A stretch of DNA of 64,000 bases from an uncultured delta proteobacterium (GCA_963782545.1 CAWAKD010000001.1:8118-72117), one strand, 5' to 3'; positions 5,674 to 51,000 are shown, counted from the first letter of the stretch. A program made the numbers and translations. Notes: generated by a model from the letters alone, not told the origin.

Positions 5674-7707
5674 CTACGGCACCACCATCAGCGGCACCGT
5701 GCCTCTGACGGACCTTGCGTTGCCGCGGACGTCGCCGTTGAGGATGGTCACCGGCACGGGCGGCACGAGCTCGAAGCGGTAGCCCTTGTTGTCGGTGGCG
5801 AGATCTACTTGCTGACCATTGTATTCCAGGTGCCGCACGTAATCCTCGGGCACGAGGCCTTGGCGAATGTTCGCCCGGTGCCGAACCAGGAAGCCGGCCA
5901 GGCGCAAGGCCAGGTGGTTGTGCAGCCGATGGCAGCCGCTACTCTCGCCGCGTTTGACCGATCGGTAGGCGGGGGTGCCGTGGGTCCGAATACGGTGGTC
6001 CACGAGCTGTGGTTCGCCGTGCTCGTCGCGCCCCTCGATCTGCAAGTGTGTGATCGCCACCAGCCCGTAGGCCGCGCGGTAGCCCGGGCCGATGACCTCG
6101 GTCTTCGGCGCCCAGCCGTCGCCCCGCTTGACCAGCAGCCTGCGGGTGGGCAGGCCCGACGACGGGTGCCAGGTCGGGGTGGCGAGAATCTCGGGCCACA
6201 GGGCCTCGCCCGTGACGGACTCCTTGTACTTGAGCGCCATGGTGCCGTCGGATCGCTCGATCGTCTTCCAGCCGCCGATGGTGGTTGGCCAGCGGCACAG
6301 CGCCACCTCGCGTTCGCCCACGCGCGCGTACAACGTGAGGGTCGGGCGATCGCTGACCGGAGGATGCCACTTCTTCTTTCCGTCCTTGTCGAGGGCCGGC
6401 CGCTTGAGGACCACCTCGCCGCGATTGATCTCCGCCCGTAGATCCATCTTGGGGCTGTGGTAGGCGGGGAGTGGCGGCAGGCGAATCGCGACCGCCGCGG
6501 GCAAGGGAGCTGGAGGCGGAAACGCGGCCCTCTTGCGCGCGGGCCGTCGCGAGGAAGGCGGCGGTGTCGGGGGAACCACCAGCGTGCTCGCCAGCACGGC
6601 TTCGGGTGACGTCCAACCCAGCGCCCGACTGGCAGCCTGGGTGGCGGCGGCGATCAGATCCGGCGCCCGAGTGACCTTGGCCGCGGTGGCTGTTTCCACG
6701 GGCAGGGGCCGGAACTCGGCGCTGTCCAGCACGCGCCCCTGCACCTCGCCGATAACACCCAGGGCCGAGCCGTCCTCGATCAGCCCGGTCGCGTCGACAA
6801 CCCGCTCGCGAAGCGCGCGCAGCAGCGCCCGGAAGTCGTGCTCGCGGCTATCGGCCAAAAGAGCGGTGCGGGTCTCGAGATCGATGCGGCCGTTGTCCGC
6901 GATCATGAGCATCCGCTGGTAAATTTGCAGGCCCGCGACCGTCCGGGGATCCATGCGCGCGCGCTTCGCCCCGCGCAGCAGCAGGCCCTCGCAGCGCAGG
7001 TGCGCCTGCATCGCGATCACCGCCCGCTGGGCCGCGGGGCTCAAGGGCTTCCTCGGCGGCGCTTCCGGTGCGAGCGCGAGCGTCGGATCGGCCGGTGCGC
7101 CGTCTTCCGGGGTGCTCGAGGACTTTTCCGGCTCTTCCGGCACGATCACGCTCCTCGGCGACATGCGTTCCAGCGCCTTGTCCGCCACCTTGTCGTGGCA
7201 AGCGTGGCGCTTGCTAGCCGCCAGCCGCCGGCGCAGCAGGTTCAGGCTGGGGAACACCCCGAAGGCTTCGAAGTAACGGTCTTCGCGGGCGCGCGCGAAG
7301 GTGCTTCCCCGGGGCAGCCGCCCGTTGGCCAGGGCGATCAGATCGGGCCGCAGCGGCTGCGGTTTCCGAGGCTCCTCCGAGAAGATGTACGGCAGCCAGT
7401 CGTCCGAAAGATCGATCACGGTCAGCCCGTCCCGGCGCGCCTTCTCGGGTGTCGTCTGGCCCACGAAGCGCCCTCCCTCGACCACCATGAGCCCGCCGTT
7501 GGCCGGGGCCACCTGGGCCGCTGGCGCTGCTTTGGCCGCCGGTGCCGGCTGCGCCGCGCGCCCGCTGCCGGCCCAAAGACCGGCGAGCGCCAGGACTGTC
7601 GATAGGGAGGCTCCCCAAGCGACCAGGTCCGCCCTCGGGGCGCGGCCTTTGCGGGAACGTCGTTGAAGCGAATTCCCGGCCGGGCTCCGTGGGTACCTCT
7701 CCAGCAC
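5674..7707 (-). CDS. L,D-transpeptidase (YcbB/LdtD-like, YkuD catalytic domain)
   Basis: C-terminal IRTHGTPAYRSVKRGESSGCHRLHN matches the H-G-T...S-x-G-C-x-R catalytic motif, with a long N-terminal scaffold. Start is uncertain: GTG 7707 precedes a signal-like ...LVAWGASLSTVLALAGLWAGSG. The ORF is open to 7977. Confidence 0.7.
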   Translation of the reverse strand: MLERYPRSPAGNSLQRRSRKGRAPRADLVAWGASLSTVLALAGLWAGSGRAAQPAPAAKAAPAAQVAPANGGLMVVEGGRFVGQTTPEKARRDGLTVIDLSDDWLPYIFSEEPRKPQPLRPDLIALANGRLPRGSTFARAREDRYFEAFGVFPSLNLLRRRLAASKRHACHDKVADKALERMSPRSVIVPEEPEKSSSTPEDGAPADPTLALAPEAPPRKPLSPAAQRAVIAMQAHLRCEGLLLRGAKRARMDPRTVAGLQIYQRMLMIADNGRIDLETRTALLADSREHDFRALLRALRERVVDATGLIEDGSALGVIGEVQGRVLDSAEFRPLPVETATAAKVTRAPDLIAAATQAASRALGWTSPEAVLASTLVVPPTPPPSSRRPARKRAAFPPPAPLPAAVAIRLPPLPAYHSPKMDLRAEINRGEVVLKRPALDKDGKKKWHPPVSDRPTLTLYARVGEREVALCRWPTTIGGWKTIERSDGTMALKYKESVTGEALWPEILATPTWHPSSGLPTRRLLVKRGDGWAPKTEVIGPGYRAAYGLVAITHLQIEGRDEHGEPQLVDHRIRTHGTPAYRSVKRGESSGCHRLHNHLALRLAGFLVRHRANIRQGLVPEDYVRHLEYNGQQVDLATDNKGYRFELVPPVPVTILNGDVRGNARSVRGTVPLMVVP

Positions 7708-10790: not shown

Positions 10791-11024
10791 GCCCTCCCTT
10801 GGCCCGCGCGGCGCGGGGTTCTGCGATCGTACACCCTCCGCTGGCGATGGGTCTAACGCTAGGTCTGCGCCGCGTCGGCGCTGCTTGCGGCATGGGACTA
10901 TCCCCTCTATCTCCGGGGCCGCGCGAAGTGAGCGGAAATTTGGCCAAGACGGGGCAATGTGTGACGGTGGCGTAGCAGTCTCGGCGCGGTGTTCGGGACA
11001 TACTGGTCAGGAAAGGAAGCAGGC

Positions 11025-12314
11025 ATGGCAGTCAATACGAAGAAGGTTCTCAGCGTCATCTTGGGCGGCGGCGCGGGCACCCGATTGTTTCCGCTCACCA
11101 AAGATCGGGCCAAGCCCGCGGTGCCGCTGGCCGGCAAGTACCGCCTGGTCGACATCCCCATTTCCAACTGTATCAACTCCGACCTCCGCAACATCTACGT
11201 GCTCACGCAGTTCCAGTCCGCCTCCATGCACCGGCACATCTCGGGGTCCTACAAATTCGATCCATTCACGGGCGGCTTCGTCGAGATTCTGGCGGCGCAA
11301 CAGACCTATTCCGATGCCTCGTGGTGGCAGGGCACGGCGGACGCGGTTCGCAAGAATATGATGCACTTCCTGACCCACGACCCGGAGTACTTCCTGATCC
11401 TCAGCGGCGACCAGCTGTACCGCATGGACTTCCGCGACATCCTGCAACAGCACCGGGACACCGGCGCCGAGATCACCATCGCCACCATCCCGGTCATCCG
11501 GCGCGACGTCAGCTCTCTCGGTATCATGCAAATGGACGTGAATCGCCGAATCCATCGCTTCGTCGAGAAGCCCAAGGAGGAGGCGCTGATGGACACTCTG
11601 CGTTTGCCGCGTGACTGGTATGGGCAGCTGGGCCTCGTCAGCGACGACGATCTATTCCTTGCCTCCATGGGCATCTACGTTTTCAACCGCGATGTGCTCT
11701 TGCAGGTGCTGGACAACGACCAACCGGATTTCGGCAAGAACATCATTCCTAGCGCCATCGCCTCGCGGTCCGTATTCTCGTACGTGTTCCAGGGCTATTG
11801 GGAGGACATCGGAACCATTCGCGCTTTCTTCGAGGCCCACCTGGACCTGGCCGCCGAACAACCTCGCTTCAGCTTCTTCGACATGTCGGCGCCCATCTTC
11901 ACCCGCCCGCGCTGGTTGCCCGGCTCGAAGATCAACGGCGGCACCCTGGACCACGCCATGTTGTGCGACGGTTGCATCGTCAACGGCGCGCACATCGAAA
12001 ATTCCGTGATCGGTATTCGCAGCATCATCGGCATCGGCGCCAAGATCGCACGCACCGTGATCATGGGGTGCGACTACTACGAGTCGATGGAATCCATCCA
12101 ATCCCACGAAGCGCAGGGCCTGCCTCGCATAGGCATCGGCAAGAACGCGCGCATCGAAAATGCCATCATCGACAAGAACGCTCGCATCGGCGACGAGGTC
12201 GTGATTTCGCCCGCAGGCAAGGCCACAAATGTGGATCACCCGCTGTACTACATCCGCGACGGCATCGTGGTCATTCCCAAGAACGCCACCATCCCGTCCG
12301 GAACCGTCATCTAG
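11025..12314 (+). CDS. glgC: Glucose-1-phosphate adenylyltransferase
   Basis: MAVNTKKVLSVILGGGAGTRLFPLTKDRAKPAVPLAGKYRLVDIPISNCINS... is the canonical GlgC N-terminus, and the left-handed beta-helix C-terminus is full length. A GGAAAGGAAG purine tract precedes ATG 11025. Confidence 0.95.
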   Translation: MAVNTKKVLSVILGGGAGTRLFPLTKDRAKPAVPLAGKYRLVDIPISNCINSDLRNIYVLTQFQSASMHRHISGSYKFDPFTGGFVEILAAQQTYSDASWWQGTADAVRKNMMHFLTHDPEYFLILSGDQLYRMDFRDILQQHRDTGAEITIATIPVIRRDVSSLGIMQMDVNRRIHRFVEKPKEEALMDTLRLPRDWYGQLGLVSDDDLFLASMGIYVFNRDVLLQVLDNDQPDFGKNIIPSAIASRSVFSYVFQGYWEDIGTIRAFFEAHLDLAAEQPRFSFFDMSAPIFTRPRWLPGSKINGGTLDHAMLCDGCIVNGAHIENSVIGIRSIIGIGAKIARTVIMGCDYYESMESIQSHEAQGLPRIGIGKNARIENAIIDKNARIGDEVVISPAGKATNVDHPLYYIRDGIVVIPKNATIPSGTVI

Positions 12315-12356
12315 CAGACCTGGAACGTCCCACCCAATACTAGCTTGAGGCCATTC
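12188..12356. repeat. Direct repeat copy A (169 bp): glgC 3' end plus downstream 42 bp; partner at 17539-17707
   Basis: Gap-free alignment to 17539-17707 at a constant offset of 5351 nt. I count 9 mismatches: 12192, 12209, 12215, 12240, 12260, 12296, 12322, 12340, 12341. Confidence 0.9.
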
Positions 12357-12423
12357 TGGTGGATGCGGGCGCTGGCGCGACTTTCCTCATGTCGCTGGCG
12401 TTACCGCCTTTCGGAAACGCTGC

Positions 12424-13942
12424 ATGTCCAAAGATCCTGACAAGAAGACTGAATCCGTCTCCAACGAAGAGCAGCTGCGAAAGCGCCTCAAGACGCTTTC
12501 GCGGCAAAGAACCTGGATGTTCGTCGGCGGCCTGCTCGCCGCGGCTTCGAGCGCAGGTCGCTTCATGGGATGGGTGTCTCCCGATTGGCATGTTCTGCCG
12601 AATTGGTTCGGGCTGATGGCAGCGGTGCTCGGCATTGTGGGAGCCCTGTACCTATCGCCCAAAATCGAGGAGTTGATACGCCAGCTTCCGCCACCCGCCG
12701 TTGTGGGGCGCGCCGCCGAGCGGCGGCGCGGGCCCTCCGACGCTCGCTTCGGCCGGCTCCGCGCCAGGGCCCGCAGGCTGCTGCCGACCTGGCGGGCCCG
12801 CATTCTTGCCGGGGCCCTGCTGGTCGGCGTTACCCTCGCCGTTTACCTCGCTGTGTCGTCACACTTGATCTTCCAGAGCCGTCTCACCACGTGCGAGGAT
12901 CGGTACAGGGAAAAGGGAACGCGGCTCTCGCCCGCCGCGCACAATCGATGCGCCCACGAGGTGGCAAAGCTCTGGTCGATGCCAGAATACTGCGACGCCT
13001 TCCAGTCCACAAAGAGCGGCGCCACGCGCGCAGATTTGCGAGCCCGCTGCCGGAGCGACGTGGCCGAGCAACTGGGCAACCTGGAGCTCTGCAAGAAGAG
13101 TGGCGATGCGTCTGAGACCGAGCGTTGCCTCCGCACGCTCGCCCTGCGGGCCGAGGATGCATCGCTTTGTGCACGGATCCCGGACGAAGAGAGCGCCGAG
13201 CTGTGTTTGGCCGAGCTCGCCGTCGGGGCGATGCGGAGCGACCTGTGTCTGCGGGTCGAAGACGAGAGCAGGCGAGGTCGTTGCATCAAGGAGATCGTCG
13301 GAAACGGGGGCGACCTAGCCCAGTGTGCGTCCATACGTGAGCCGCAGGAGCGCGATGCGTGCTATCTCGGCGCCGGCGCGGCCAATCCTGGCGCATGCCG
13401 GAAGATCTCCCCGGACCGGCGCGCGGAGTGTCTCAAACGGTATCCCGTGGCGCTCGACGACCTCGACGCCGCATGCGAGGGGCAGGCCCAGTGTCTCGCT
13501 GCGCTCGGCAGCGCCACCGCGAGTACTGCGCCGTGTGAGCTCATCTCGGATGCCGAGGCCTCGCTCCGGGTGCAGTGCTTCGAGGCGGCATTCGAGCTAC
13601 GCCCGTGGACCCGGGACTCCGAGTGTGCACGACTACGCCTGCCAAAGCTTCGCGACGACTGCTTCTCCGGCCTGGGACGCCAGGTCGGGCACGCGGGAGC
13701 ATGTCTTCGAGGTGCTCGACCCGGTGATGCGCAAGGAGTGCGTGCGCGCCGCCGGAAAGAGCGACGCCAGCCGCTGCCTGGCCCTCGGCGACGCGGCGGA
13801 CGCGACCAGCTGTGTCTCGGAGTCGGATCTGGCGAAAACGATCGACCCCAGCGTTTGCAGGCTTCTGCCAAAGCCCAGGCGGAAGGCATGCGCGCAACAG
13901 GTGGCCAGCAACCTCGAGGAGGAGGTGGGCAATGCCCGCTGA
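12424..13942 (+). pseudogene. Membrane-anchored Cys-repeat protein (unnamed repeat family); frame broken near 13700
   Basis: Three TM helices followed by many C-x(9-13)-C units. ORF 12424..13980 loses the repeat pattern after ...GRQVGHAGAC. ORF 13325..13942 in the next frame restores it (FEVLDPVMRKECVRAAGKSDASRCLALGD...). This may be a sequencing indel. Confidence 0.5.
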
Positions 13943-14975
13943 TGCCGGGAAGCGGAGGGGCCACCGCGGCCCCTCCTTGACGATCGCCCTCGTGGTCATG
14001 GCCACCGCGTGCTCGGGCAGGATGTCCCGCAAGGAGGCGCTCGGTCTGTTCTTCGAATGCAAGGCGGCCGGCGAGTCGCGGCGGGGCGAGTGTTTTGTGA
14101 GGCGAGGTAGCGTGGCTGCTTGCCGGCGCGCCGCGACCGTCATGTCGAGCCCCGAGTGTTTCAGTGCGGTTGCGGCGGAGGAGAAGAAGGCGGAGATCTG
14201 TGCCGAGATTGCGAGCTTCCAGGATCGGGTCGATTGCGTGAAGGGCGTTGCGGAGAAGTCGGCGGATGCGACGGTTTGCGCTCACATCGAAGCGCCCCGG
14301 TACCGAGACGAATGCGTGGACATGGTCGCCGGGCAACGGGCCACGGACGTATCGGTTTGCGACCTCATCGGGAATGCCTTCCGTCGGGACACCTGTCGCG
14401 AGAAGCACAACGACTACTTCCGCGGCGCGGCCTGTCCTCACATCGAGGACACCAACCGGCGGGACGCCTGCTACCTTGCCGTGGTCAAATCCTACAAGGG
14501 CTCGGTCGACCTATGCGACAAGATCGTCGGGCGTAAGGCAGAATGCCTGCTGGACTTTGCGCTGGAACACCCCGAGGTGTGCGAGCGGCTTGGCTCTGGT
14601 CCAGGCTCGATTCCCAGGGCCGTCTGCTACGAGGCCGCGTTTGGCGTTTCATCGGGTCGCACGTCGTGTGCCGGCATCGCGGAGCGGGCGCAAATCCTGG
14701 AATGTGAGGCACGGCTTGCCGTTCGAGCGAACGACAGCGCGACCTGCACCGCCATGCTGACCAGCGACGATGCGGACGACTGTTGGAATGCAATCGCCCG
14801 CGCAGACGGTGCTGCCTGCCTCAAGATCCGGCAGCCTGATTTCCAGCGCCAGTGCTTGCGAAGATACTGGAGCCAGGCGCACGACGCGCGAATCTGCTCG
14901 TCCCTGGCGCCGGCCTCGCTGGCAAAGGCCTGTACCATGCACTTTCGTCGCAAGGCCGGCAGACCGGGGCGGTAG
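13932..14975 (+). CDS. Secreted Cys-repeat protein, paralog of 12424..13942
   Basis: GGAGGTGGGCA precedes ATG 13932, and the gene overlaps the upstream stop by 11 nt. Signal ...SLTIALVVMATACSG. It has the same repeat unit (..RDECVDMV.., ..RDTCREKH.., ..RDACYLAV.., ..QRQCLRRY..). Confidence 0.6.
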   Translation: MPADAGKRRGHRGPSLTIALVVMATACSGRMSRKEALGLFFECKAAGESRRGECFVRRGSVAACRRAATVMSSPECFSAVAAEEKKAEICAEIASFQDRVDCVKGVAEKSADATVCAHIEAPRYRDECVDMVAGQRATDVSVCDLIGNAFRRDTCREKHNDYFRGAACPHIEDTNRRDACYLAVVKSYKGSVDLCDKIVGRKAECLLDFALEHPEVCERLGSGPGSIPRAVCYEAAFGVSSGRTSCAGIAERAQILECEARLAVRANDSATCTAMLTSDDADDCWNAIARADGAACLKIRQPDFQRQCLRRYWSQAHDARICSSLAPASLAKACTMHFRRKAGRPGR

Positions 14976-15108
14976 GTGGCCGTCTCGTCGGATTGTCTCC
15001 AATGAGATCACCCAGTCGTCGTCCAAGCAGCACGCCAGAAGGCCAAGTCGTCCATCCTACTTGCCTGCTTGAGGGCGATCTTATAGCTTGGCAGGTGGCA
15101 GGGGATGT

Positions 15109-15615
15109 ATGCCTAGGAAACCGTCGATCAACGGGATGGTTCTCGTGCTCGCGTTTGTGGCCAGCGCGTGCGGGCCGGGCGGCAACAACTGTACGTGCGG
15201 CGTGCCGGACGGGAGCACGGGCGGAGGTGTCGACTTCGCGGGATCGTATGCCGGTGTGCTTAGGCAATCGGATGAGTCATGCCAATATATGTTGGGGTCT
15301 CTCGGGTACGACTCCAACGCCGTGATGACGTTGAGCATGCCGAACTCGACGGAAGTCGATATCGTCAGCATTACCTGGTGTCCCGTTCACGGCTCGCCCT
15401 CGTACAACAAGGTCAATATTCAACCGGTCGTCTGCCCGACGATCACGGACGCAAGCGGTACGAGCGTCATCGAGTTTACGGGGGGAGATCTGACCTTGGA
15501 CGATGCCACGACGCTGCAGGTTCATCTTTATAGGAAGGCGCAATACTATCCGGTGGCCGGGACGCCCCTAACTGATTGCACGTCCGGCCTTTCCGGAACC
15601 CTCAAGAAACAGTGA
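15109..15615 (+). CDS. Hypothetical lipoprotein
   Basis: MPRKPSINGMVLVLAFVASACGPGG signal with Cys. High GC3. No recognisable family. Confidence 0.55.
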   Translation: MPRKPSINGMVLVLAFVASACGPGGNNCTCGVPDGSTGGGVDFAGSYAGVLRQSDESCQYMLGSLGYDSNAVMTLSMPNSTEVDIVSITWCPVHGSPSYNKVNIQPVVCPTITDASGTSVIEFTGGDLTLDDATTLQVHLYRKAQYYPVAGTPLTDCTSGLSGTLKKQ

Positions 15616-15795
15616 GCCGCGCGATTCGTGGCCATAGGCTCCACAAGCGCCACTTTTCCTTCATCGAATCGCATCCACGACATGTCCGATGTCAGAGCCG
15701 TCGTGTACTCCTTGCCACTCAGAAAAGCCATGGCGGCGTTGATCTGCAAAGGCGACGTGGACGCTGTGTTGACGCCACCAGGAGGTATCGCCTGA

Positions 15796-16203
15796 ATGAG
15801 AGTCCTGATTGCAGCGCTCCTGGCTGTTTTGGTGTGGCCCGCGTTGGCAATCGCCTGTCGATGTAATGAGCCTACGATGAGCCAGGCCTACGCGCGTGCC
15901 GATGCGGTGGCCATGGTTAGCATTGAGGCGATTTCGCAGCTACCAGGCGATATCACTTGCGCAAAGGGCGTGGTGACCCAATCGTGGAAGTCTACTCTGC
16001 CAGAGTCGCTTACCATCTTCACCGGCGAGGATTGCAGCTATAGGCTCAACAAGGGCGGCACCTACTTGCTGTACCTCAAGCGCAACAAAGATGGGGAGTT
16101 TGGAACCTACCGATGCCGGGGCAACAAGAGCGAAGCGGAGTCCGCGGCGCCAGTTCGATGGCTCAATCGCCATGGGAAGCGTACGAACCACCGAACGAAG
16201 TAG
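15796..16203 (+). CDS. Small secreted protein with TIMP/NTR-like features (mature N-terminus C-x-C)
   Basis: AGGAGG lies 8 nt upstream of ATG. Signal MRVLIAALLAVLVWPALAIA is followed directly by CRCNEPTMSQAYARADAVAMVSIEAI, and later by ...EDCSYRLNKGGTYLLYLKRNKDGEFGTYRCRG. The gene call is solid; the TIMP-like assignment is by pattern only. Confidence 0.6.
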   Translation: MRVLIAALLAVLVWPALAIACRCNEPTMSQAYARADAVAMVSIEAISQLPGDITCAKGVVTQSWKSTLPESLTIFTGEDCSYRLNKGGTYLLYLKRNKDGEFGTYRCRGNKSEAESAAPVRWLNRHGKRTNHRTK

Positions 16204-16540
16204 GTTGGAAATCAGGCTCTCGCCGCTTGCGGGCGAGCGGGGCCGCGCGCGGCAATGGCCATGGCGTCTTGCTTTTCTGGATCCTTCGCCAGACCGACGA
16301 CGGCGTCCGACAGGCCCTCGGCGCAGGCCGCGGCTTGGTGGCGCGCTGCTGTCCTCACCCGGACACCGAAGGCGACGCCGAAGGCAATATGCCTTACACA
16401 CACGTTCCACCCCAATTGCCCCTGCCGGTTTCCCGTGGTCTGGTGAACGAACCGTCCATTCACGACAGCCAACCCGCCCGCCAGACCCGCCTCGGCAGCA
16501 TGCGTGACGGCTCAAATCGATTACGGACGGCCGAAGGTCG

Positions 16541-16960
16541 CTAGCCGGTCTCGCCAATCCGCTGGCGGATGGCCGCCACGAATGCCTCGAAATCTGGAAG
16601 GTGGTGGTCGAGCACGTCGAGCACGACGCTGACATCGACTTCGGCGTAGCCGTGGACGAGCACGTTTCGGAAGCCGCCCATGTCGCGCAGAACACCTACC
16701 AGGGGAGGCGCAAGCCATCCGTGCCGGCCCAGCAAGTCGAACAGCTCACGATTCGTGCGAGGCTCGCCCAGCCGGTTGTCCGACACGATGTGGGAAGCGA
16801 CGTCCAGCGCTGCCTGGATGGCGATCTGCAGGGTGTGCTCCACGAAGCGGAGCTCGCGCACGTCCGCGGACAGACGATCGGGCCGTGCCTGCTGCCGCAG
16901 GTCGCGCAGGCAGGTTTCGATGAATGCCACCTTCTTGGCGATGAGGTCCTGATCCGTCAC
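16541..16960 (-). CDS. hepT: HepT (DUF86) toxin of a type VII toxin-antitoxin pair
   Basis: R-x4-H-x-Y motif in GGFRNVLVHGYAEVD. GTG 16960 overlaps the stop of the upstream mntA by 4 nt (GTGA). Confidence 0.85.
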   Translation of the reverse strand: MTDQDLIAKKVAFIETCLRDLRQQARPDRLSADVRELRFVEHTLQIAIQAALDVASHIVSDNRLGEPRTNRELFDLLGRHGWLAPPLVGVLRDMGGFRNVLVHGYAEVDVSVVLDVLDHHLPDFEAFVAAIRQRIGETG

Positions 16961-17394
16961 GCGGCACGCTCCCCTGGTGGTCTTCGATAGCGCCGCAGCA
17001 TCGGCAGGACGTCGAAGTACTCGTTGCGCGCCTTCACCTCGAAGCGGATGCGCGCGGACCGATTGTTCTCGATGACCAGCAAGCCATCGCGCAGAACGCG
17101 ATGGACCAGATCCGGCGGCTGATGGTCGAGCACCACCAGATCGACCCGACGGCCGAGGCGTTCTTCGAGGTCGCCGGCCAGGGCGAGCTTGAGCCCTGCC
17201 AGACCTGGGTCCACCGGCTTGCCACAAAGGACCGCCACATCCACATCGCTGTCCGCACTGGCTTCGCCGCGCGCCATACTGCCGAACAGGTAGACGGCGG
17301 CTGCGTCCTCGTTCCTCGCCGCGAACACGTGCGCGATTTCCCCTGCTAGTCGGTCTCGATCCACGCAGATAGTGTACCCCACATCGTCCGTCAC
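16957..17394 (-). CDS. mntA: MntA-type nucleotidyltransferase antitoxin
   Basis: YLFGSMARGEASADSDVDVAVL matches G-S-x9-11-D-x-D of minimal nucleotidyltransferases. It lies immediately upstream of and overlaps hepT. Confidence 0.85.
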   Translation of the reverse strand: MTDDVGYTICVDRDRLAGEIAHVFAARNEDAAAVYLFGSMARGEASADSDVDVAVLCGKPVDPGLAGLKLALAGDLEERLGRRVDLVVLDHQPPDLVHRVLRDGLLVIENNRSARIRFEVKARNEYFDVLPMLRRYRRPPGERAA

Positions 17395-17441
17395 GGTTGT
17401 GTTTGCCGATCCCCGACCGGTAGATCAGTGTGAGCCGCAAT

Positions 17442-17456
17442 GTCCGGAATCCGGAC
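17442..17456. promoter_or_regulatory. Perfect 7-1-7 palindrome GTCCGGA-A-TCCGGAC upstream of mntA-hepT (candidate operator)
   Basis: Read directly from the sequence, 48-62 nt upstream of the mntA start codon. Toxin-antitoxin operons are commonly autoregulated through palindromes. Function is not demonstrated. Confidence 0.3.
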
Positions 17457-17475
17457 GCGGCTCCTTCTGCCTACC

Positions 17476-17508
17476 AACTCCAGGCGTACCCAAACTCCAG
17501 GCGTACCC
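17476..17508. repeat. Tandem 17-bp direct repeat (AACTCCAGGCGTACCC x2)
   Basis: AACTCCAGGCGTACCCA followed by AACTCCAGGCGTACCC, read directly. It sits 30 nt inside the right junction of the 12188-17707 segment. Confidence 0.6.
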
Positions 17509-17538
17509 GAGGCAGAGCCGACTGAACACGAATGATAG

Positions 17539-17707
17539 AGGCAACGAGGTCGTGATTTCTCCCGCTGGCAAGGCCACAAATGTGGATCACGCGCTGTACT
17601 ACATCCGCGATGGCATCGTGGTCATTCCCAAGAACGCCACCATCCCTTCCGGAACCGTCATCTAGCAGACCTAGAACGTCCCACCCAATAACAGCTTGAG
17701 GCCATTC
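17539..17707. repeat. Direct repeat copy B (169 bp); partner at 12188-12356
   Basis: See copy A. It contains an orphan glgC tail and the stop codon of the convergent gene 17671..18360. Confidence 0.9.
17543..17665 (+). pseudogene. Orphan 3' fragment of glgC (last ~40 codons)
   Basis: Translates to NEVVISPAGKATNVDHALYYIRDGIVVIPKNATIPSGTVI*, against glgC DEVVISPAGKATNVDHPLYYIRDGIVVIPKNATIPSGTVI*. No upstream glgC body is present. Confidence 0.85.
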
Positions 17708-18360
17708 GAAGTCGGCGCGAGACCTGCCGCGGTGAGGGCGAGTCCGGAAGGTCTGTCCGATCCCGGCTGAGGACCGTCTTGGGTTTGGTTTTGGGCTCTC
17801 ACAGACGGCGGCGCGGAGGTTCTTCCCCAGGCGATGCTCCAGTCCACCAGCGCCGCCGTGAACGCACCGATGCTTCCGCCCACGATTGCGCCCCCGATTT
17901 CACATTCATCGCCGTGTGCATTGCAGCTCCTGAACTGGCTTCCGATCGCCATGCCCATGAGCGGCAGGAACAGGCGCATGATGGGACTCAAGGCTACCAG
18001 GGTGCCCCGGCGATGCACCGCATGGACAATGATGGGCCCCGCAAAGTAGCCGGCTATCGCCACCTCCGGGCGATCGAACGCGAACCCCAGAGCAATGGAG
18101 GTCGCGTCCGCCAGCATGACCTGGTAGCCGTACCATTTCCTCGCCGGCGCCGTAGATGCTACGGGTTGGCGGTCTAGTAAGCTTGAGGGCGGTGCGACGG
18201 GAGCTCCCGCCATGCGCGGCGGTGCAGCCTGACCGGGAACGAGGGCGACGCCGCCCGACACCGCGCTGGCATCCGCGTGTGCCTTGCTTCCGCCAACCCA
18301 AGACAGCGCCAAGGCGAAAGAAACAATCAGGCCGTACCTGAGGGTGGGCTTGGACACCAT
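17671..18360 (-). CDS. Hypothetical secreted/membrane protein
   Basis: ATG 18360 gives the MVSKPTLRYGLIVSFALALSWVGGSKAHA signal, and hydrophobic segments follow. High GC3. Its last 12 codons lie in repeat copy B. Confidence 0.5.
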   Translation of the reverse strand: MVSKPTLRYGLIVSFALALSWVGGSKAHADASAVSGGVALVPGQAAPPRMAGAPVAPPSSLLDRQPVASTAPARKWYGYQVMLADATSIALGFAFDRPEVAIAGYFAGPIIVHAVHRRGTLVALSPIMRLFLPLMGMAIGSQFRSCNAHGDECEIGGAIVGGSIGAFTAALVDWSIAWGRTSAPPSVRAQNQTQDGPQPGSDRPSGLALTAAGLAPTSNGLKLLLGGTF

Positions 18361-18532
18361 GAAGTCGTCTCGCGCAAACACCATGCCCCCCTCAATGCAA
18401 GGTACGATCCAATGAAATTGGGGCAGTTTCAAGGCGGGTTTGCGTGGCGGCCGAACGGACTGGTGAGAACCCCACACTTGGCCGTCAAGAAGCGCCCACC
18501 AAGCCGCCTCCGGCGCGCCCGATGGGCCTCGC

Positions 18533-20648: not shown

Positions 20649-20900
20649 GGTTCTCCTCGATTCGTATTCAGGTTGAAACCACTACTTCCCCGATTTGGGG
20701 GACCAGATCAAGTCCTTAACCTGTACGGAGCGATCCCGCGTCGGTCGATGGACGTTCCCGGCTCAGCGATGCCGGCGCAAGCCCGCTGAACTCGAGTCTT
20801 CGCTGCACTGGAGCTTCTTCTTGCAATGTCCGAGCGGTGCGCGAATCTCTTCGGATTGCCCCATGACCAAACGCCACGGCGAAGATCCCTGCCCGTAGTC

Positions 20901-38812: not shown

Positions 38813-40717
38813 TCAATTGACGACGGTCGCCCATCCCTGGGCGGGCATGCTGAACTGCACCTTTTGGCCGCCGATGGAGACGACGTAGGCGGTGTTGGCG
38901 GAACCGCTGTTGTACATGATCGCGACGATGTGGCCGTCCGGGTTCTTGAACGCCACGGCGTCGCCGCCACTGGTCGCGACCCGCTTGGCTCCCACGGCGA
39001 CGAACTGGGAGAAATGGCGGAAGACGCAATAGGCGGGTGTGACGGTCACCGCCTTCGACGATGTGTTCACCGCCAAGAGCGCGTCCTGGTTCCAAGCGCG
39101 GTGTGTATCGATGCCGTTGCCCGCCGTGTCCAGTACCATGTTCCAGGCGTTGTAGGCCGTCACCTGGCCCTTGGTGATCGCGTCTCGGATGTAGCCCCAG
39201 CTCTCCACGCCGTAGGCCTGGTCGTTGGGGGCCTTCGTGCTGTTGTACGCAGGATAGCCGGATGGGTTCCACGGGTAGTTGCCGCACTTATGCTCCGTCG
39301 CCCAGATGGGAAGACTGCCGAACTTCGTACCACTGTTCACCTTGTCGAGCACATTCCACTGCACGCCGGCGACAGTAAAGAAGCCCTTTGCGGTGCCATC
39401 GGCCAGCGCCGCGTTGCCAAGGTCCACGTCCTTGCCGCTGTCGGAATTGGACAGCGTGCCGAGCATGACGCCGACCCCAGTGCCATTGAGCGCCGGACCC
39501 AGGTACTGGCCGACGAACTTCGTGTAAAGCGCCGACGTCCAGATGCAGGACGGGTAGTGGAGGGCGTAGTTGGGCTCGTTCTGGGGAGCGACCACGGAGA
39601 TGTTGATGCCCGCAGCCTTATACGCATTGATGAACTTGACGAAGTATTGAGCATACGCCGTCAGATTCGCAGCGGTGTCCGCCATGTTTCCACTGTCGAA
39701 GTTCGACGAGGTCGTGGCACTGTCGTCGGTGATCGCCGTGAATGGTCCGGTCTTCATCCAGGTTGGAGGCGTCCAGGGGCTGGCCCAGAACTTCATGTCC
39801 GACTTTACCTTCAGCGCAGCCTGGATATAGGGGATGATATTTTTGCCATCCTCGGTCGTGTTGAAATTGGCCATCGAGGTGTCTGCACCGCCCTCGTCGT
39901 CCGTGTACCGGGCGATGGCGTAGTCGCTGGCTCCCATCGGAATGCGTCCAATGTTGAAATTGGCGCCATCCGTCCCGAATAGAAGCTGCATCACCCTATC
40001 CTGGTCGCTCTGGCCGAGCGTCTGGATGTACTTCCACCCGAGCTCGTTGAAACATCCACCAAAACCTTCCCAGGTCTGCGATGTGGAGCTGTCGTTGACG
40101 GTCACGGTTGCGTTCGCGGTCGACGTGCTGATGGTCCCGGGCGTCCAGGTCGTACCGCTTCCTGACACGCAGCTACCATTGGTCGAAGTATACACGGCGG
40201 GCCCAGCCGTGGTGGCCCCACCCGCCGACGAGGTCCCGCCCCCGCCCTGCGTCCCACCTGCCGCGGTGCCGCCAGCGCCCGTCGTCGTCCCGCCGGCAGC
40301 CGAGCCCCCTGCCCCGGTCGTGGTCGTGCCGCCAGTTGCGTTGCCGCCTGAGCCGCCGCCGCCGGAGCCGGTCGAGCCGCCCCTCGCGGGCGCGCCGCCG
40401 GCCGCGTTGCCGCCCGAGCCACCGTTCTGGCTGCCGCCCGCACCACCGTTCTGGTTGCCGCCCGACCCGCCGCTCTGGTTGCCGCCCGACCCACCGCTCT
40501 GGTTGCCACCCGCGCCACCGCTCTGGTTACCGCCCGACCCGCCGCTCTGGTTGCCGCCCGACCCGCCGGTCTCGTTGCCGCCCGACCCACCCGTGCTGGG
40601 AGTAGTATCGCCACCAGACCCCCCTTGCGGCGGCGTGCCGGTGCCTTGCCCCGAGCTGCAAGCCGCAAAGAGAACCGTGAGTCCAAGGCTGGTGATCGAT
40701 ATCCGTGCTCTGTTCAT
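38813..40717 (-). CDS. Glycoside hydrolase family 30 lipoprotein (beta-1,6-glucanase/glucosylceramidase-like)
   Basis: Signal ...LGLTVLFAAC and a Gly-rich repeat linker, followed by QTWEGFGGCFNELGW, VVAPQNEPNY (acid/base) and PIWATEHKCG (nucleophile context). Confidence 0.85.
   Translation of the reverse strand: MNRARISITSLGLTVLFAACSSGQGTGTPPQGGSGGDTTPSTGGSGGNETGGSGGNQSGGSGGNQSGGAGGNQSGGSGGNQSGGSGGNQNGGAGGSQNGGSGGNAAGGAPARGGSTGSGGGGSGGNATGGTTTTGAGGSAAGGTTTGAGGTAAGGTQGGGGTSSAGGATTAGPAVYTSTNGSCVSGSGTTWTPGTISTSTANATVTVNDSSTSQTWEGFGGCFNELGWKYIQTLGQSDQDRVMQLLFGTDGANFNIGRIPMGASDYAIARYTDDEGGADTSMANFNTTEDGKNIIPYIQAALKVKSDMKFWASPWTPPTWMKTGPFTAITDDSATTSSNFDSGNMADTAANLTAYAQYFVKFINAYKAAGINISVVAPQNEPNYALHYPSCIWTSALYTKFVGQYLGPALNGTGVGVMLGTLSNSDSGKDVDLGNAALADGTAKGFFTVAGVQWNVLDKVNSGTKFGSLPIWATEHKCGNYPWNPSGYPAYNSTKAPNDQAYGVESWGYIRDAITKGQVTAYNAWNMVLDTAGNGIDTHRAWNQDALLAVNTSSKAVTVTPAYCVFRHFSQFVAVGAKRVATSGGDAVAFKNPDGHIVAIMYNSGSANTAYVVSIGGQKVQFSMPAQGWATVVN
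40407..40598. repeat. Eight tandem 24-bp units encoding (GGSGGNQS)n in the GH30 linker
   Basis: TTGCCGCCCGA(C/G)CC(G/A)CCG(C/T)TCTGG-type units read consecutively on the plus strand. The protein reads GGSGGNETGGSGGNQSGGSGGNQSGGAGGNQSGGSGGNQSGGSGGNQNGGAGGSQNGG. Confidence 0.9.
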
Positions 40718-47501: not shown

Positions 47502-48058
47502 GCCTCTTCTTTCGTCCGTTTGGGTGGTTCCGTCAAGGGCGAACTTTGTATCCGAAGAATTCAGGTGCAGGGGCAGAAAACCGATGGTGTTGGTGGCTGT
47601 CTTGTGCTCTCTGTCCGTCGAGTCCGTCCCCTCGATGGGCAAGAACAGCAAGCACAAATGACCAGCGCCCAAGGCACGAAAATGCAGGCGGCGCTCACGT
47701 AGTTACCATCGACGAACCTCAAGAGCGGGACGCGCGGACCGGTTTCAATCAGTCCAAGGAGCTGCTCATGTGCAATGAGCTTCCACTCGGACGAGCCAAG
47801 GCCATTTCAACTGCCTTCTGCGCTCGGTGCGAGCAGTCCGCTGCGATGGCCCCGACATACCCACCTCTTCTATCCCATCCGCCTTCGCGGCCAAGCCCGG
47901 GTGACGCGGACCACACGCCTCCCCCCAAAAAGTCACTGCGCGCCAAATTGCCTCTTGCCTTTCTTAGGGGATGGTGCAGCATCGCGCGAATGACCTAACG
48001 TGTCACCGGCGTGGAACCCTTTCCCAATAGCAGTGTGCGAACTCGTGGAGGTGTGTCG

Positions 48059-51000
48059 ATGAAGAAATCCAACTTTCGGCTCGTTGCTCTCGGTGTCCTT
48101 GTCCTGGCTTCTTGTAACAACACAAGCCCTGCGCCCGTCGAGTCGTCGACGGAAAACCTGACGGCAAGCAAGGCCGGCGGCAAGGACAAGATCACGGCAT
48201 GGGTGTTGATGAAGGATCAAGCCAACCTGGCGCAGGCCCGCGGCATCAAGGACTGGAAGGCGCGAGGCAAGGCGGTCCACGAGGGTCTCCAGAACCATGC
48301 CAACGTCCATCAGGCCAGCCTGCGGGCCTGGCTCAAGCAGAAGGGGATCGAGCACAAGCCGTTCTGGATCGTGAACACCATCAGGGTGACGACGAATCAG
48401 GCCACCCTGGACGAGATCGCCAAGCGGCCAGACGTGGCCCGAATTGTCGAAGACAAGACCTTCCCAGTGCCGCCGCTATTGCCGGCGGCGGACATCGTTC
48501 CCGTCGAGGGCACGGAATGGGGCCTGAATAGCATCAGGGCGCCGGATGCCTGGCAAAGCTTTGGGGCGTTCGGGGACGGCATCGTCGTCGCCAGCGTCGA
48601 CACCGGGGTGCAGTACGATCACCCGGCCCTGGTGAATCAATACCGCGGCCGACAAGCCGACGGGTCCTTCAACCACAACTACAACTGGTACGATCCGTCC
48701 AACTCTTGCGGCAGCCCATCGCTCGTTCCTTGCGACAACAACAACCACGGCACCCACACCATGGGCACCATGGTGGGCGACGATGGCTCTCCAGGCGCCA
48801 ACCGCATCGGCGTCGCGCCGCACGCCAAATGGATCGCGGCCAAAGGCTGCGAACAGAGTACCTGCAGCACCTCTTCGCTGCTTGCGGCTGGGCAGTGGAT
48901 CCTGGCGCCTACCGACCTCAACGGCCAGAATCCACGTTCCGACCTGCGCCCGAACATCGTCAACAACTCGTGGGGCGGCGGCGGCGGGGACGTCTGGTAC
49001 CAGCAGATCGTGCAGAATTGGGTGGCGGCCGGGATCTTCCCCGCGTTCTCCAACGGCAACTCGGGCTCGGGCTGCAGCACGTCGGGTACGCCAGGCGACT
49101 ATCCGGAGAGCTTCTCGGCCGGCGCCTACGATATCAACAACGTGATTGCCAGCTTCTCCAGTCGTGGCCCGTCGGCGTTTGCCGGAATCATCAAGCCGAA
49201 CATCGCAGCACCCGGCGTGAGCGTTCGCAGCAGCATCCCGGGCAACAGCTATGCCAGCTACAGTGGCACGTCGATGGCGTCGCCCCACGTTGCGGGCTCC
49301 GTCGCCCTGCTCTGGTCCTCCGCGCCGTCGCTGATTGGCGACATCGCCGCCACCGAGGCACTGCTGTCGCTGACCGCCGTGGACACCGCCGATACCAGCT
49401 GCGGCGGCACCGCAGCCAACAACAACGTTTGGGGCGAGGGAAGGCTGGACATCTACGCGGCCATCGATCAGGCCCCGCGCGGTCCTACCGGCACGCTCCA
49501 AGGCACGGTCACGACGGCGTCGGGAGGCGCGCCGCTGGCCGGTGCCACCATCACGGTTGCGGGCAGCAGCCGGACCGCCACCACCGACTCGACCGGCGCC
49601 TATCAGATGACGTTGCCGGTGGGCTCCTACACGGTGACCGCCAGCCTGTACGCCTACCAAAGCTCCTCGGCTGACCAAGTCGCCATCACCGAAGGGGCGA
49701 CAACAGTCCAGAACCTCGTCATGGTCGCGGTCCCATCGCACTCTCTCTCGGGTCAGGTGAGAGATGACCAGGGCGCGGCGGTGGCCAATGTCAAGGTCAC
49801 CATCCTTGGTACGCCGCTTGCGCCTGCCACCACTGGTGCTGATGGTAGCTACAGCTTCTCAGCCGTGCCTGATGGGGAATACGACGTCAAGGTGGACACC
49901 ACCGGCTGCCTCGCCGGCCTGACCTCGCACGTGACGATCGACGCCAACACGACCATCGACTTCGCGGTCGTGGCCCGCCGAGACACCTTCGGCTACTCGT
50001 GCCGAGCCGGAGCCTATGCGTATATTGCCGCCAACACCGTGCTCTCGCTGACGGGTGACGATTCTGCGGTGGCGGTGGCGCTGCCGTTCCCCTTCACGTT
50101 CTATGGTCAGCCCTACAGCACCGCCTACGTTTCCACCAATGGGATCGTGAACTTTCTCACCCCGGACTCGACGTATAGCAACACTAGCATCCCATCCGCC
50201 TCGACCCCCAACGCGGCCATCTATGCGATGTGGGACGACCTCTATGCTGACAGCGGGGTCGGCAGCATTCGTACCGAGCTGGTGGGCACTGCGCCGAACC
50301 GCAGCTTCGTCATCGAATGGCGTTCCGTGCACTTCTATGGCGTCGCGACGCCGCTCATCGGATTCGAAATGGTGCTCTCCGAGAACGGCCAGGTGGCCCT
50401 TCAGTACGCTACCGTGGGCAGCGACGGACGGGCGCAGGGCAACTCGGCGACCATCGGCATCGAGAACAGCTCGGGAACCGTGGCCTTGCAGTACTCGTAC
50501 AACCAAGCCGTGCTCAGCGACGGGCAGGCGATTGTTTTCGTGTCGCCGCCCGTGAACACCGCGCCCGTGGTCAACGCGGGAGCGGATCAGACCATCACCT
50601 TGCCCGCCACGGCGAGCTTGTCCGGGACCGCCACCGACGACGGGCTGCCCAATCCGCCCGCGACCGTGACCACCGCCTGGTCCGTGGTGTCGGGGACGGG
50701 TACGGTGACCTTCGCCAATCCCGCGGCGCTTGCCACCACGGCGAGCTTCTCGGCTTGGGGAACGTATACCCTGCGGCTGACCGCGAGCGACGGTTATCTG
50801 TCCGCGAGTGACGACCTCGTCGTCACCGTGAACCCGGCAGGCCCATCGCACTCTCTCTTGGGTCATGTGATAGACGACCAGGGCGCAGCGGTGGCCAATG
50901 TCAAGGTCACCATCGTCAATACGCCGCTTGCGCCTGCCACCACCGGCGCCGACGGTAGCTACAGCTTCGCGGCGGTGCCTGAGGGGGAATATGACGTCAA

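Follow-up and report, generated by a model that had tools for sequence, protein, structure and literature searches.

The joined 3' ends of glgC and its convergent neighbour are present twice at this locus, as a genuine 168-bp direct duplication that brackets 5.2 kb of accessory DNA. The explanation we favour, to which we attach somewhat less than even confidence, is that the locus is an old and decayed scar left by Campbell-type integration of a site-specific element, and that it is now immobile.

Pairwise alignment of positions 12189–12356 (copy A) with 17540–17707 (copy B) is gap-free at a constant offset of 5351 nt, and the copies differ at nine positions (12192, 12209, 12215, 12240, 12260, 12296, 12322, 12340 and 12341), corresponding to 94.6% identity over 168 nt. 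The first-pass annotation had described a repeat of 169 nt (12188–12356 and 17539–17707) with the same offset, no gaps, nine mismatches and ~95% identity; all of this stands except the length, which is 168 nt because position 12188 is already mismatched between the copies. A mismatch at 12192 lies very near the left edge, and the true homology may start at 12193. Each copy comprises the last 41 codons of glgC with the TAG stop (12189–12314 in copy A) and the terminal 37 nt of the convergent gene, with a spacer of 5 nt between them, and the alignment thereby bears out the earlier account of what the repeat spans. Tandem protein-coding repeats aside, no other dispersed repeat reaches 40 nt in the 64-kb stretch of DNA that we analyzed (the window), and in 1.49 Mb of comparison loci just seven others had a length of 80 nt or more with 88% identity or better. 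The source appears to be a metagenomic contig, and the nearest relatives all come from metagenome-assembled genomes (MAGs) or metagenome contigs, which would be compatible with an assembly artefact in which co-existing strains had been joined into a chimera at one repeat copy or at a cargo/flank boundary. We consider this very improbable: the copies carry nine differences, their longest shared exact run (35 nt) is too short for repeat-driven misjoins at usual k-mer sizes, the outer boundaries of the cargo have no sequence in common from which a chimera could have been seeded, and neither flanking gene is truncated or out of frame.

The left-hand flanking gene, glgC (11025–12314, plus strand), is intact and encodes a glucose-1-phosphate adenylyltransferase of 429 aa with Pfam NTP_transferase and LbH_GLGC domains, its last 126 nt being supplied by copy A. 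Its best relatives are glgC genes of Polyangia and of organisms labelled 'delta proteobacterium' (91% identity). On the right, the convergent gene (17671–18384, minus strand) encodes a membrane or secreted protein of 237 aa and was the original right-hand neighbour of glgC; it has no family match in Pfam or NCBIfam, and its homologues, which are 38–54% identical, end in ...LVLGGTF. Of the two glgC tails, the functional one with its stop is in copy A and the orphan, still in frame (17540–17665), is in copy B; for the convergent gene the roles are reversed, copy B supplying the functional 3' end and copy A an orphan tail. The spacer is present in both. The ancestral arrangement must have been glgC followed, after 5 nt, by the convergent gene on the opposite strand, and 5,183 nt now separates two copies of that junction. 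An intact recA gene is located 6 kb from the locus.

The cargo carries six genes. The first, cys1 (12424–13942, plus strand), specifies a membrane-anchored Cys-repeat protein and contains a +1 frameshift at ~13704–13706; tblastn with homologues from comparison loci L093, L095 and L098 places the switch of frame at 13706–13722, and DNA alignment reveals one extra T relative to L093. The gene is either a pseudogene or the product of a sequencing error, and a consensus error of this kind would also be in keeping with an assembly artefact. Next to it, and overlapping its end by 11 nt as in relatives, is cys2 (13932–14975, plus strand), which encodes a Cys-repeat lipoprotein without a match in Pfam, NCBIfam or PADLOC. 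The two had been called paralogs, and a BLASTP E value of 1e-9 between them confirms this. Homologues of cys2 (45–73% identity) are invariably preceded by a cys1-like gene, and the contexts of these pairs are unrelated; the nearest relatives of cys1-cys2 belong to the same clade as our locus. A predicted lipoprotein gene follows (15088–15615, plus strand), recognized in the sequence by a signal peptide with a ...VASAC lipobox and lacking family matches. The fourth gene (15796–16203, plus strand) encodes a small secreted protein with the mature N-terminus CRCNEP and has a single weak, partial relative in metagenomes. The label 'TIMP-like' given to it at first could not be upheld: there was no Pfam TIMP match even at E ≤ 10 and no sequence match in the PDB, a single-sequence AlphaFold2 model was unusable (pLDDT 40), and the sole resemblance to a TIMP or NTR domain is the N-terminal C-x-C after the signal peptide. 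The last two genes, on the minus strand, encode a HepT ribonuclease toxin (16541–16960; Pfam HepT-like, 1e-27; NCBIfam HepT_toxin equivalog, 120.5 bits against a cut-off of 60) and a MntA nucleotidyltransferase antitoxin (16957–17394; Pfam Polbeta and NTP_transf_2; NCBIfam MntA_antitoxin equivalog, 90.9 bits against a cut-off of 60). Both scores exceed the curated cut-offs and substantiate the identities first proposed for the pair, whose genes overlap by 4 nt (16957–16960) and constitute a type VII toxin-antitoxin system. Between MntA and the right junction (17395–17539) lie a 7+7 palindrome, GTCCGGA-A-TCCGGAC (17442–17456), and a tandem 17-mer (17476–17508) that had been noted before and proves to be unique in the window; most simply, these would form the predicted promoter/operator of the toxin-antitoxin pair.

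As the first-pass annotation had reported, the cargo is devoid of mobility genes. Searches with Pfam, NCBIfam and PADLOC detected no tyrosine, serine or DDE recombinase domain in the cargo genes or in alternative-frame open reading frames (ORFs), and no integrase, excisionase, transposase, relaxase or remnant of one was detected in these or in ~40 other ORFs of the window. The largest non-coding gap in the cargo, 337 nt at 16204–16540, where the plus- and minus-strand arms converge, is the only plausible deletion scar, and ORFs overlapping it had no Pfam match at E ≤ 0.1. A mobilising function of an unrecognised kind within the cargo, entertained earlier, is unlikely because the genes are all of secreted/lipoprotein or toxin-antitoxin type and no larger gap exists. 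There are no tRNA genes in the 64-kb window, no arm-type motifs common to the two inner ends of the cargo (nothing related to the motifs at 17395–17539 occurs at the left end), no terminal inverted repeats, no plasmid backbone or replication gene in the insert, and no matches of the cargo to plasmid or phage databases. A comparison of tetranucleotide usage between cargo and flanks, which the first-pass annotation had proposed as a check, revealed no anomaly in the cargo (distance 12.9, within the window range of 8.5–18.8). The absence of a recombinase, of arm-type motifs and inverted repeats and of plasmid or phage matches, together with the unremarkable tetranucleotide usage, counts against an integration scar. 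In its favour are the accessory nature of the cargo, the toxin-antitoxin pair near one end, the occurrence of cys1-cys2 in unrelated contexts elsewhere, and a GC3 of 0.70–0.85, somewhat lower than the 0.84–0.91 of housekeeping neighbours. Transposons and insertion sequences also leave inserted DNA flanked by a direct target duplication, but we rejected them as the source, there being no transposase, no terminal inverted repeats and a duplication of 168 nt, roughly ten times the length of the longest transposase-made duplication known to us.

The differences between the copies bear upon their origin and age. Codon alignment of the glgC tails verified the split given at first, four synonymous and two non-synonymous changes (D to N and P to A). 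Judged against four outgroup lineages, five of the six are derived in orphan copy B, and at all four synonymous differences it is copy B that has acquired a rare T-ending codon (P ~1e-4 under glgC codon usage). The orphan tail has decayed in one direction, by ~4–5%. The orphan tail of the convergent gene in copy A, read on the minus strand, is NGLKLVLGGTF-QVC*; its stop has been lost, to CAG, and the ancestral V of the homologues is kept. From the one-sided decay and the rare T-ending codons we infer that the copies were probably near-identical at their origin and that the event is old, and the pattern is more suggestive of erosion following the event than of attP and attB having differed from the start. 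The decayed glgC tail, the lost stop and the frameshift in cys1 are all signs of age, and the age would be sufficient for the loss of genes from an integrated element. Moreover, both copies share the derived states KATN, IVV, NAT and the TAG stop, which occur neither in any of the 120 closest glgC proteins nor, at the DNA level, in seven loci drawn from four related lineages. Copy B therefore derives from this lineage's own glgC.

Under the Campbell-type explanation, a circular DNA would have borne the cargo together with one copy of the junction (R, ~168 bp of glgC and convergent-gene ends), and a single reciprocal crossover within R would have joined it to the chromosomal junction. One such crossover would place 5.2 kb between genes 5 nt apart; both genes would keep a full 3' end, and an orphan tail would be left on either side of the insert. 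This is exactly what is seen: the edges of the repeat are the ends of the cargo, and R reproduces the two gene ends and the spacer between them as one unbroken stretch. The most likely catalyst would be a site-specific recombinase encoded by an e14/phage-21-type integrative element that had acquired the host gene end through aberrant excision in the same lineage; the recombinase and the remainder of the element would have been deleted afterwards, leaving an immobile islet resembling a CIME and stabilised by the HepT/MntA pair. The geometry is also that of suicide plasmids, which integrate as non-replicating circles by a single Campbell crossover through homologous recombination and so duplicate the homologous segment as direct repeats around the insert, although these are a laboratory paradigm and the insert here has no plasmid backbone or replication gene and no match in the plasmid database. 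Identical geometry would result if RecA had integrated a circle of R and cargo by homologous recombination over the 168 bp, with no dedicated recombinase in this genome and with the circle excised, for example, from an R-cargo-R arrangement in a conspecific strain and taken up by transformation or conjugation. Homologous recombination requires an R that is of the same lineage and near-identical at origin, as appears to have been the case, and the nearby recA and the missing integrase are compatible with it. We nonetheless judge RecA-mediated integration unlikely, since 168 bp is short for efficient RecA recombination and the question of how the first R-cargo-R arrangement arose is passed on to another strain. 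Had the circle come instead from illegitimate excision of an insertion that lacked the duplication, both orphan tails would lie on one side of the cargo, which is not observed.

The closest parallel to the proposed integration scar in architecture and dimensions is the e14 element of Escherichia coli K-12, which, like phage 21, is integrated at the 3' end of icd and has the icdC pseudogene at its far end (PMC13626634). In both cases the 3' end of a metabolic gene is duplicated, one copy completing the gene and the other remaining at the distal end of the insert as an orphan tail that is still in frame, and the icd/icdC repeat, as we measured it, is similar in size and identity (~166 nt and ~92%) to the repeat described here. 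The two differ in that e14 is 15.2 kb long and carries intE, xisE and phage genes, whereas our insert is 5.2 kb long without a recombinase. Homology in e14 ends at the icd stop codon but here continues 42 nt beyond the stop, into a second, convergent gene, and the icd/icdC differences are bidirectional and mostly synonymous, as between two functional alleles, in contrast to the one-sided decay of the orphan tail. Flanking repeats that include the 3' end of a target gene, one hallmark of integrative elements, are thus present, and an element-encoded recombinase, another, is not. Repeats of CIMEs are tens of bp long, as opposed to 168 bp here. CIMEs are a recognised class of elements that keep attL and attR and have lost the genes for integration (PMC5704250). 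The islet resembles them in retaining both att-like repeats, which are candidate att sites only, and in having no integration or transfer genes. CIMEs, however, share att sites with a cognate ICE or IME that can mobilise them in cis or in trans, and they frequently sit in tandem with it; the window, 100 loci and a metagenome scan yielded neither a cognate element nor a third repeat copy. As a variant, the islet may still move with the help of an unlinked recombinase for which the glgC tail is the recognition site.

Near-identical, lineage-specific copies suit an element-free duplication in situ at least as well as they suit an integration scar. One possible event of this type, nearly as likely in our estimation as the Campbell-type scar and about equally well fitted to the data bearing on an att footprint, is a duplicative insertion without any recombinase: a staggered double-strand break across the convergent junction, or two nicks there ~168 nt apart, would be filled in, and a linear fragment from the same genome or a conspecific would be captured by end-joining or template-switch repair, yielding a 168-bp target duplication in one step. 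Because the genes are 5 nt apart, only events that duplicate both gene ends would survive. The lack of a recombinase in the cargo and the window ORFs tested, the lineage-specific states in both copies, the one-sided decay and T-ending codons indicating copies that were probably identical at origin, the native-like composition of the cargo, and the same-clade provenance of the nearest cys1-cys2 relatives all agree with this proposal, as does the sequence GGC at the right junction, which may be a 3-nt microhomology. Such repeats are also rare, with none in the Polyangia comparison loci, as a one-off accident predicts. Weighing against it, no available source locus shows that the cargo was copied and no sequence feature specifically marks end-joining; we also know of hardly any documented bacterial case in which break repair made a target duplication longer than 100 bp. 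Moreover, identical copies are likewise permitted by an e14-type model, provided that R was picked up by the element in this same lineage.

Comparison with relatives did not yield a second example. None of 90 glgC loci, ~10 of them from the same clade, has a second glgC tail within 10 kb, and neither an empty site, a second occupied site nor an orphan glgC tail was detected in these loci or in the metagenome scan, where the glgC tail peptide had no matches. No empty site was found because the neighbours of glgC differ in every relative (the closest glgC is 91% identical, the convergent gene at most 54%). Across these 90 loci and the metagenome scan the 3' end of glgC does not recur as a target, a further point against an integration scar. 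The first-pass annotation had read the locus as an attL/attR footprint: its architecture, the intact genes and the missing recombinase hold up, but integration of a mobile element is not demonstrated, given the failure to find an empty site, the native-like composition, the lack of arm motifs, the lineage-specific copies and the one-sided decay.

What is new here is the lineage-specific origin of both copies, the one-sided decay of an orphan tail with rare T-ending codons, and the parallel with e14. A long duplication of gene ends without an integrase is not by itself proof of an att-based mobile element, and the direction of mismatches together with the codon pattern can date such an event and separate later decay from attP/attB divergence. 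Should the locus be a decayed e14-type scar, it would be a further, unsurprising example of insertion at a gene end that spares the gene and then erodes to a few cargo genes, useful for annotating a sparsely sequenced Polyangia-like lineage. Should it instead have arisen independently of a recombinase, it would represent the wedging of accessory genes by repair between convergent genes 5 nt apart, a way of adding genes between essential or near-overlapping ones of which bacteria offer hardly any documented cases and whose scars would provide a searchable signature.

Comparison of the segments flanking the 5,183-nt cargo by MAFFT, by a repeat finder and base by base gave the same result: a 168-nt sequence (R) occurs twice in direct orientation, as copy A at 12189-12356 and copy B at 17540-17707, and the copies align without gaps, every position being offset by 5351 nt. 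The two copies are 94.6% identical, the longest identical run between them is 35 nt, and their homology breaks off sharply at both edges. The pairwise alignment thus confirms the duplication of the glgC tail and of the end of its convergent neighbor described in the first-pass annotation, except that the repeat starts one nucleotide later than had been reported. R contains the last 41 codons of glgC together with the TAG stop; after a spacer of 5 nt come the terminal 37 nt of the gene on the opposite strand. Copy A supplies the 3' end of glgC (11025-12314, + strand) and carries an orphan tail of the convergent gene in which the stop has become CAG. Copy B supplies the 3' end of the convergent gene (17671-18384, - strand, 237 aa) and carries an orphan, still in-frame glgC tail with four synonymous and two non-synonymous changes relative to copy A, exactly as first counted. 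Tandem repeats within protein-coding genes aside, no other dispersed repeat in the 64-kb window reaches 40 nt, and when 1.49 Mb of comparison loci were compared with themselves by BLAST, just seven further repeats of similar size emerged, none of them in same-clade loci. That R arose as an assembly artefact is very improbable: nine positions distinguish the copies, no uninterrupted identical stretch exceeds 35 nt, and the outer cargo boundaries have no sequence in common that could have seeded a misjoin.

Repeats of other kinds also occur in these data. At 48011-53416 of the window, a 294-nt unit occurs six times within a 1,801-aa ORF, which also has a 300-nt pair, and seven 24-nt tandem units encoding a Gly/Asn/Ser-rich linker lie at 40371-40610 in the region of a GH30 glycosidase gene. 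In the comparison locus L003, from a Verrucomicrobia MAG, an 8.9-kb segment lies between the copies of a 115-nt direct repeat (2534-2648 and 11431-11545, 93% identical) and has its end 144 nt downstream of the local glgC, and a second pair is found at 6049-6200 and 20652-20804 (153 nt, 90%); these pairs may be dispersed intergenic repeats.

We searched for the glgC locus in 185,579 species genomes (GTDB, one genome per species) and in a collection of 5.8 billion proteins. The closest match in each was 91% identical at the amino acid level; that in the species genomes belongs to locus L001, whose likeness to the window starts ~100 nt upstream of glgC and ends exactly at the glgC stop codon. Three protein clusters with 89-90% identity to the window's GlgC (P0012, P0013 and P0014) each have a different downstream gene; homologs of the convergent gene reach at most 54% identity, and none adjoins glgC. 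In JGI metagenomes, a degenerate DNA-level scan for the exact peptide at the GlgC C-terminus gave no match, and exact-protein look-ups found no entry for the window's own GlgC or convergent-gene protein. No empty site came out of these searches. A second glgC tail was present in none of 90 glgC loci; within the diversity sampled, the 3' end of glgC is therefore not a site of repeated integration, and we rejected that possibility. With regard to the wider surroundings of glgC, the relatives with 89-91% identical GlgC (L001, 9894-11290; L083, L086 and L089) have only glgC and ~100 nt upstream in common with the window (10918-12314), all neighbors being different, and L089 alone has glgC in a glycogen operon, where it follows the genes for a GH57 branching enzyme and for glycogen synthase. 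Beyond this clade the nearest GlgC relatives are from Verrucomicrobiota (~71%), and the GC content of glgC is 0.60 versus ~0.67 in its flanks. The overall picture suggests that glgC itself was relocated or transferred within the group.

The differences between the copies of R bear on its source and age. Both copies share K-A-T-N, I-V-V and N-A-T, and both have TAG as the stop codon in place of the TGA of relatives; these states are absent from the 120 closest GlgC proteins and from the DNA of seven loci representing four relative lineages. Since the shared states are unique to this lineage, copy B derives from the lineage's own glgC and not from a distant donor. When the six glgC-tail differences were polarized against four outgroup lineages, five proved to be derived in the orphan copy B and one was ambiguous. 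All four synonymous differences replace a common codon with a rare T-ending one (TCT, GCT, GAT, CCT); T occupies 9.8% of glgC third positions, giving a joint probability of ~1e-4 if codons were drawn from glgC usage. At the codon level this reads not as a further functional allele but as relaxed, AT-biased decay. As for the tail of the convergent gene, the orphan copy A is without a stop yet retains the ancestral V of ...LVLGGTF, and the functional copy B has a conservative V-to-L change. On the simplest reading, the copies would have been nearly identical at formation and have undergone ~4-5% neutral change since, which would make the event old on a within-species scale and, set against the 13% nucleotide divergence of glgC from the nearest sequenced relative, much younger than that split.

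The cargo consists of two arms convergent on each other, and its largest non-coding stretch is 337 nt. Downstream of glgC and in the same direction are cys1 (12424-13942), encoding a membrane-anchored Cys-repeat protein, cys2 (13932-14975), encoding a Cys-repeat lipoprotein, a further lipoprotein gene (15088-15615) and a gene for a small secreted protein (15796-16203). The other arm follows the convergent gene and has its direction; it comprises the genes for MntA (17394-16957) and HepT (16960-16541). Both HepT and MntA exceed Pfam thresholds and NCBIfam equivalog cut-offs, so their original label holds, and together they make up a genuine type VII toxin-antitoxin module; MntA had no match among viral contigs. 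The products of cys1 and cys2, initially picked out as paralogs, are indeed paralogous (E = 1e-9). The two genes form a conserved module that retains its 11-nt overlap in relatives (L093, L094-L097 and L098-L100) and has no family in Pfam, NCBIfam or PADLOC. In those relatives the pair is without flanking repeats and adjoins unrelated genes, encoding an RHS toxin, an RCC1-repeat protein or a DEAD helicase; this is one of the grounds on which we discarded the idea that the cargo exists elsewhere as a unit. A one-base insertion in the window's cys1 at ~13705 (13690-13720; GCATGTCTTC versus GCATG-CCTC in the L093 homolog) changes the frame of the last ~80 codons and, because the site lies outside any long homopolymer, may be genuine pseudogenization rather than a sequencing error. 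The small secreted protein, with a mature N-terminus of C-R-C-N-E-P, has almost no detectable relatives apart from one weak partial match in JGI metagenomes; its earlier description as TIMP-like could not be substantiated, the single-sequence structure model reaching a pLDDT of only 40.

Neither the tetranucleotides nor the GC3 of the cargo, judged within the window, gave a compositional sign of foreign origin. Its tetranucleotide distance is 12.9, with 5-kb tiles of the window spanning 8.5-18.8, and its GC3 of 0.70-0.85, against 0.84-0.91 in housekeeping neighbors, resembles that of other accessory genes such as the convergent gene (0.73). Searches of 72,556 plasmids and of 50,697 phage records with the cargo DNA were both negative. 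Integrase, excisionase, transposase and relaxase domains were found in no cargo gene and in none of ten alternative-frame cargo ORFs, which upholds the first-pass annotation's claim that no integrase, transposase or relaxase lies inside. Nor did ~30 further window ORFs contain recombinase or relaxase domains, and with both sets of ORFs devoid of recombinase matches we rejected a hidden recombinase. Neighbors across the window include aspartokinase, ComM and RecA, and there are no tRNA genes in it. At the cargo ends we found no terminal inverted repeats, and no motif of at least 8 nt is common to the two inner ends. The tandem 17-mer previously reported near the right junction is present at 17476-17508 and occurs once in the window; together with a perfect 7+7 palindrome (GTCCGGA-A-TCCGGAC, 17442-17456) it falls within the 145-nt region upstream of MntA, 48-114 nt before the MntA start. 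These two elements are likely the promoter and autoregulatory operator of the HepT/MntA operon. Given the missing inverted repeats and common motif, and a 17-mer that is single and in the MntA promoter region, att-like arm sites at the cargo ends were rejected.

As read from the sequence, the arrangement can only have come from a state in which glgC and the convergent gene were neighbors separated by 5 nt, and a single event must have both duplicated R and brought in the cargo. A two-step route, in which a 168-bp tandem duplication preceded the insertion, was set aside as unlikely: the insertion must strike the exact junction between copies, and the sequence 3' of 12356 shows no restart of R. 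A circle formed by illegitimate excision from a duplication-free insertion was also rejected, as both orphan tails would then be on the same side of the cargo. Two kinds of explanation are left, a Campbell-type crossover and a duplicative insertion made in one step by break repair. In the latter, which we rate somewhat below the recombinase-catalyzed crossover described below, staggered nicks ~168 nt apart would be filled in and a linear fragment captured. Such an insertion requires no recombinase and would account for lineage-specific copies identical at origin, for native-like cargo and for the coverage of both gene ends by R, because only such repair events leave both genes intact; against it, repair-generated target duplications of this length are, to our knowledge, hardly documented in bacteria.

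In size and layout R resembles the repeat associated with e14, a cryptic prophage of E. coli K-12 integrated in the 3' end of icd, which leaves icdC (PMC13626634). We measured this repeat directly in MG1655, where ~166 nt at the 3' end of icd recur in the icdC pseudogene with ~92% identity and the element encodes intE and xisE; unlike the icd repeat, R runs 42 nt beyond the glgC stop. By analogy, the locus would behave as an e14-type insertion at a gene 3' end or be what is left of one. On this e14/phage-21 model, a circle bearing R and the cargo would cross over, Campbell-type, with the chromosomal R under catalysis by a site-specific recombinase. Aberrant excision would have captured the host gene end, the extra 42 nt perhaps marking its arbitrary end-point, and loss of the recombinase would leave an islet like a cis-mobilizable element (CIME; PMC5704250). 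We favor this recombinase-catalyzed crossover tentatively. Were RecA to catalyze the crossover of the same circle, the geometry would be equivalent; that version merely shifts the origin of the first R-cargo-R arrangement to another strain, and we consider it improbable. Recombinase-free duplicative insertion at the convergent junction, or mobilization in trans by an unlinked recombinase, is possible but less likely than not.

The structure is real, and it bears no sign of current mobility or of a new mechanism. The locus is not a transposon. The recombinase expected of an integrative element is absent from it, and no cognate element turned up in the window, in 100 loci or in the metagenome scan. 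It is an islet without a recombinase, with copies of a duplicated gene end on both sides, and as such belongs to a class already known.
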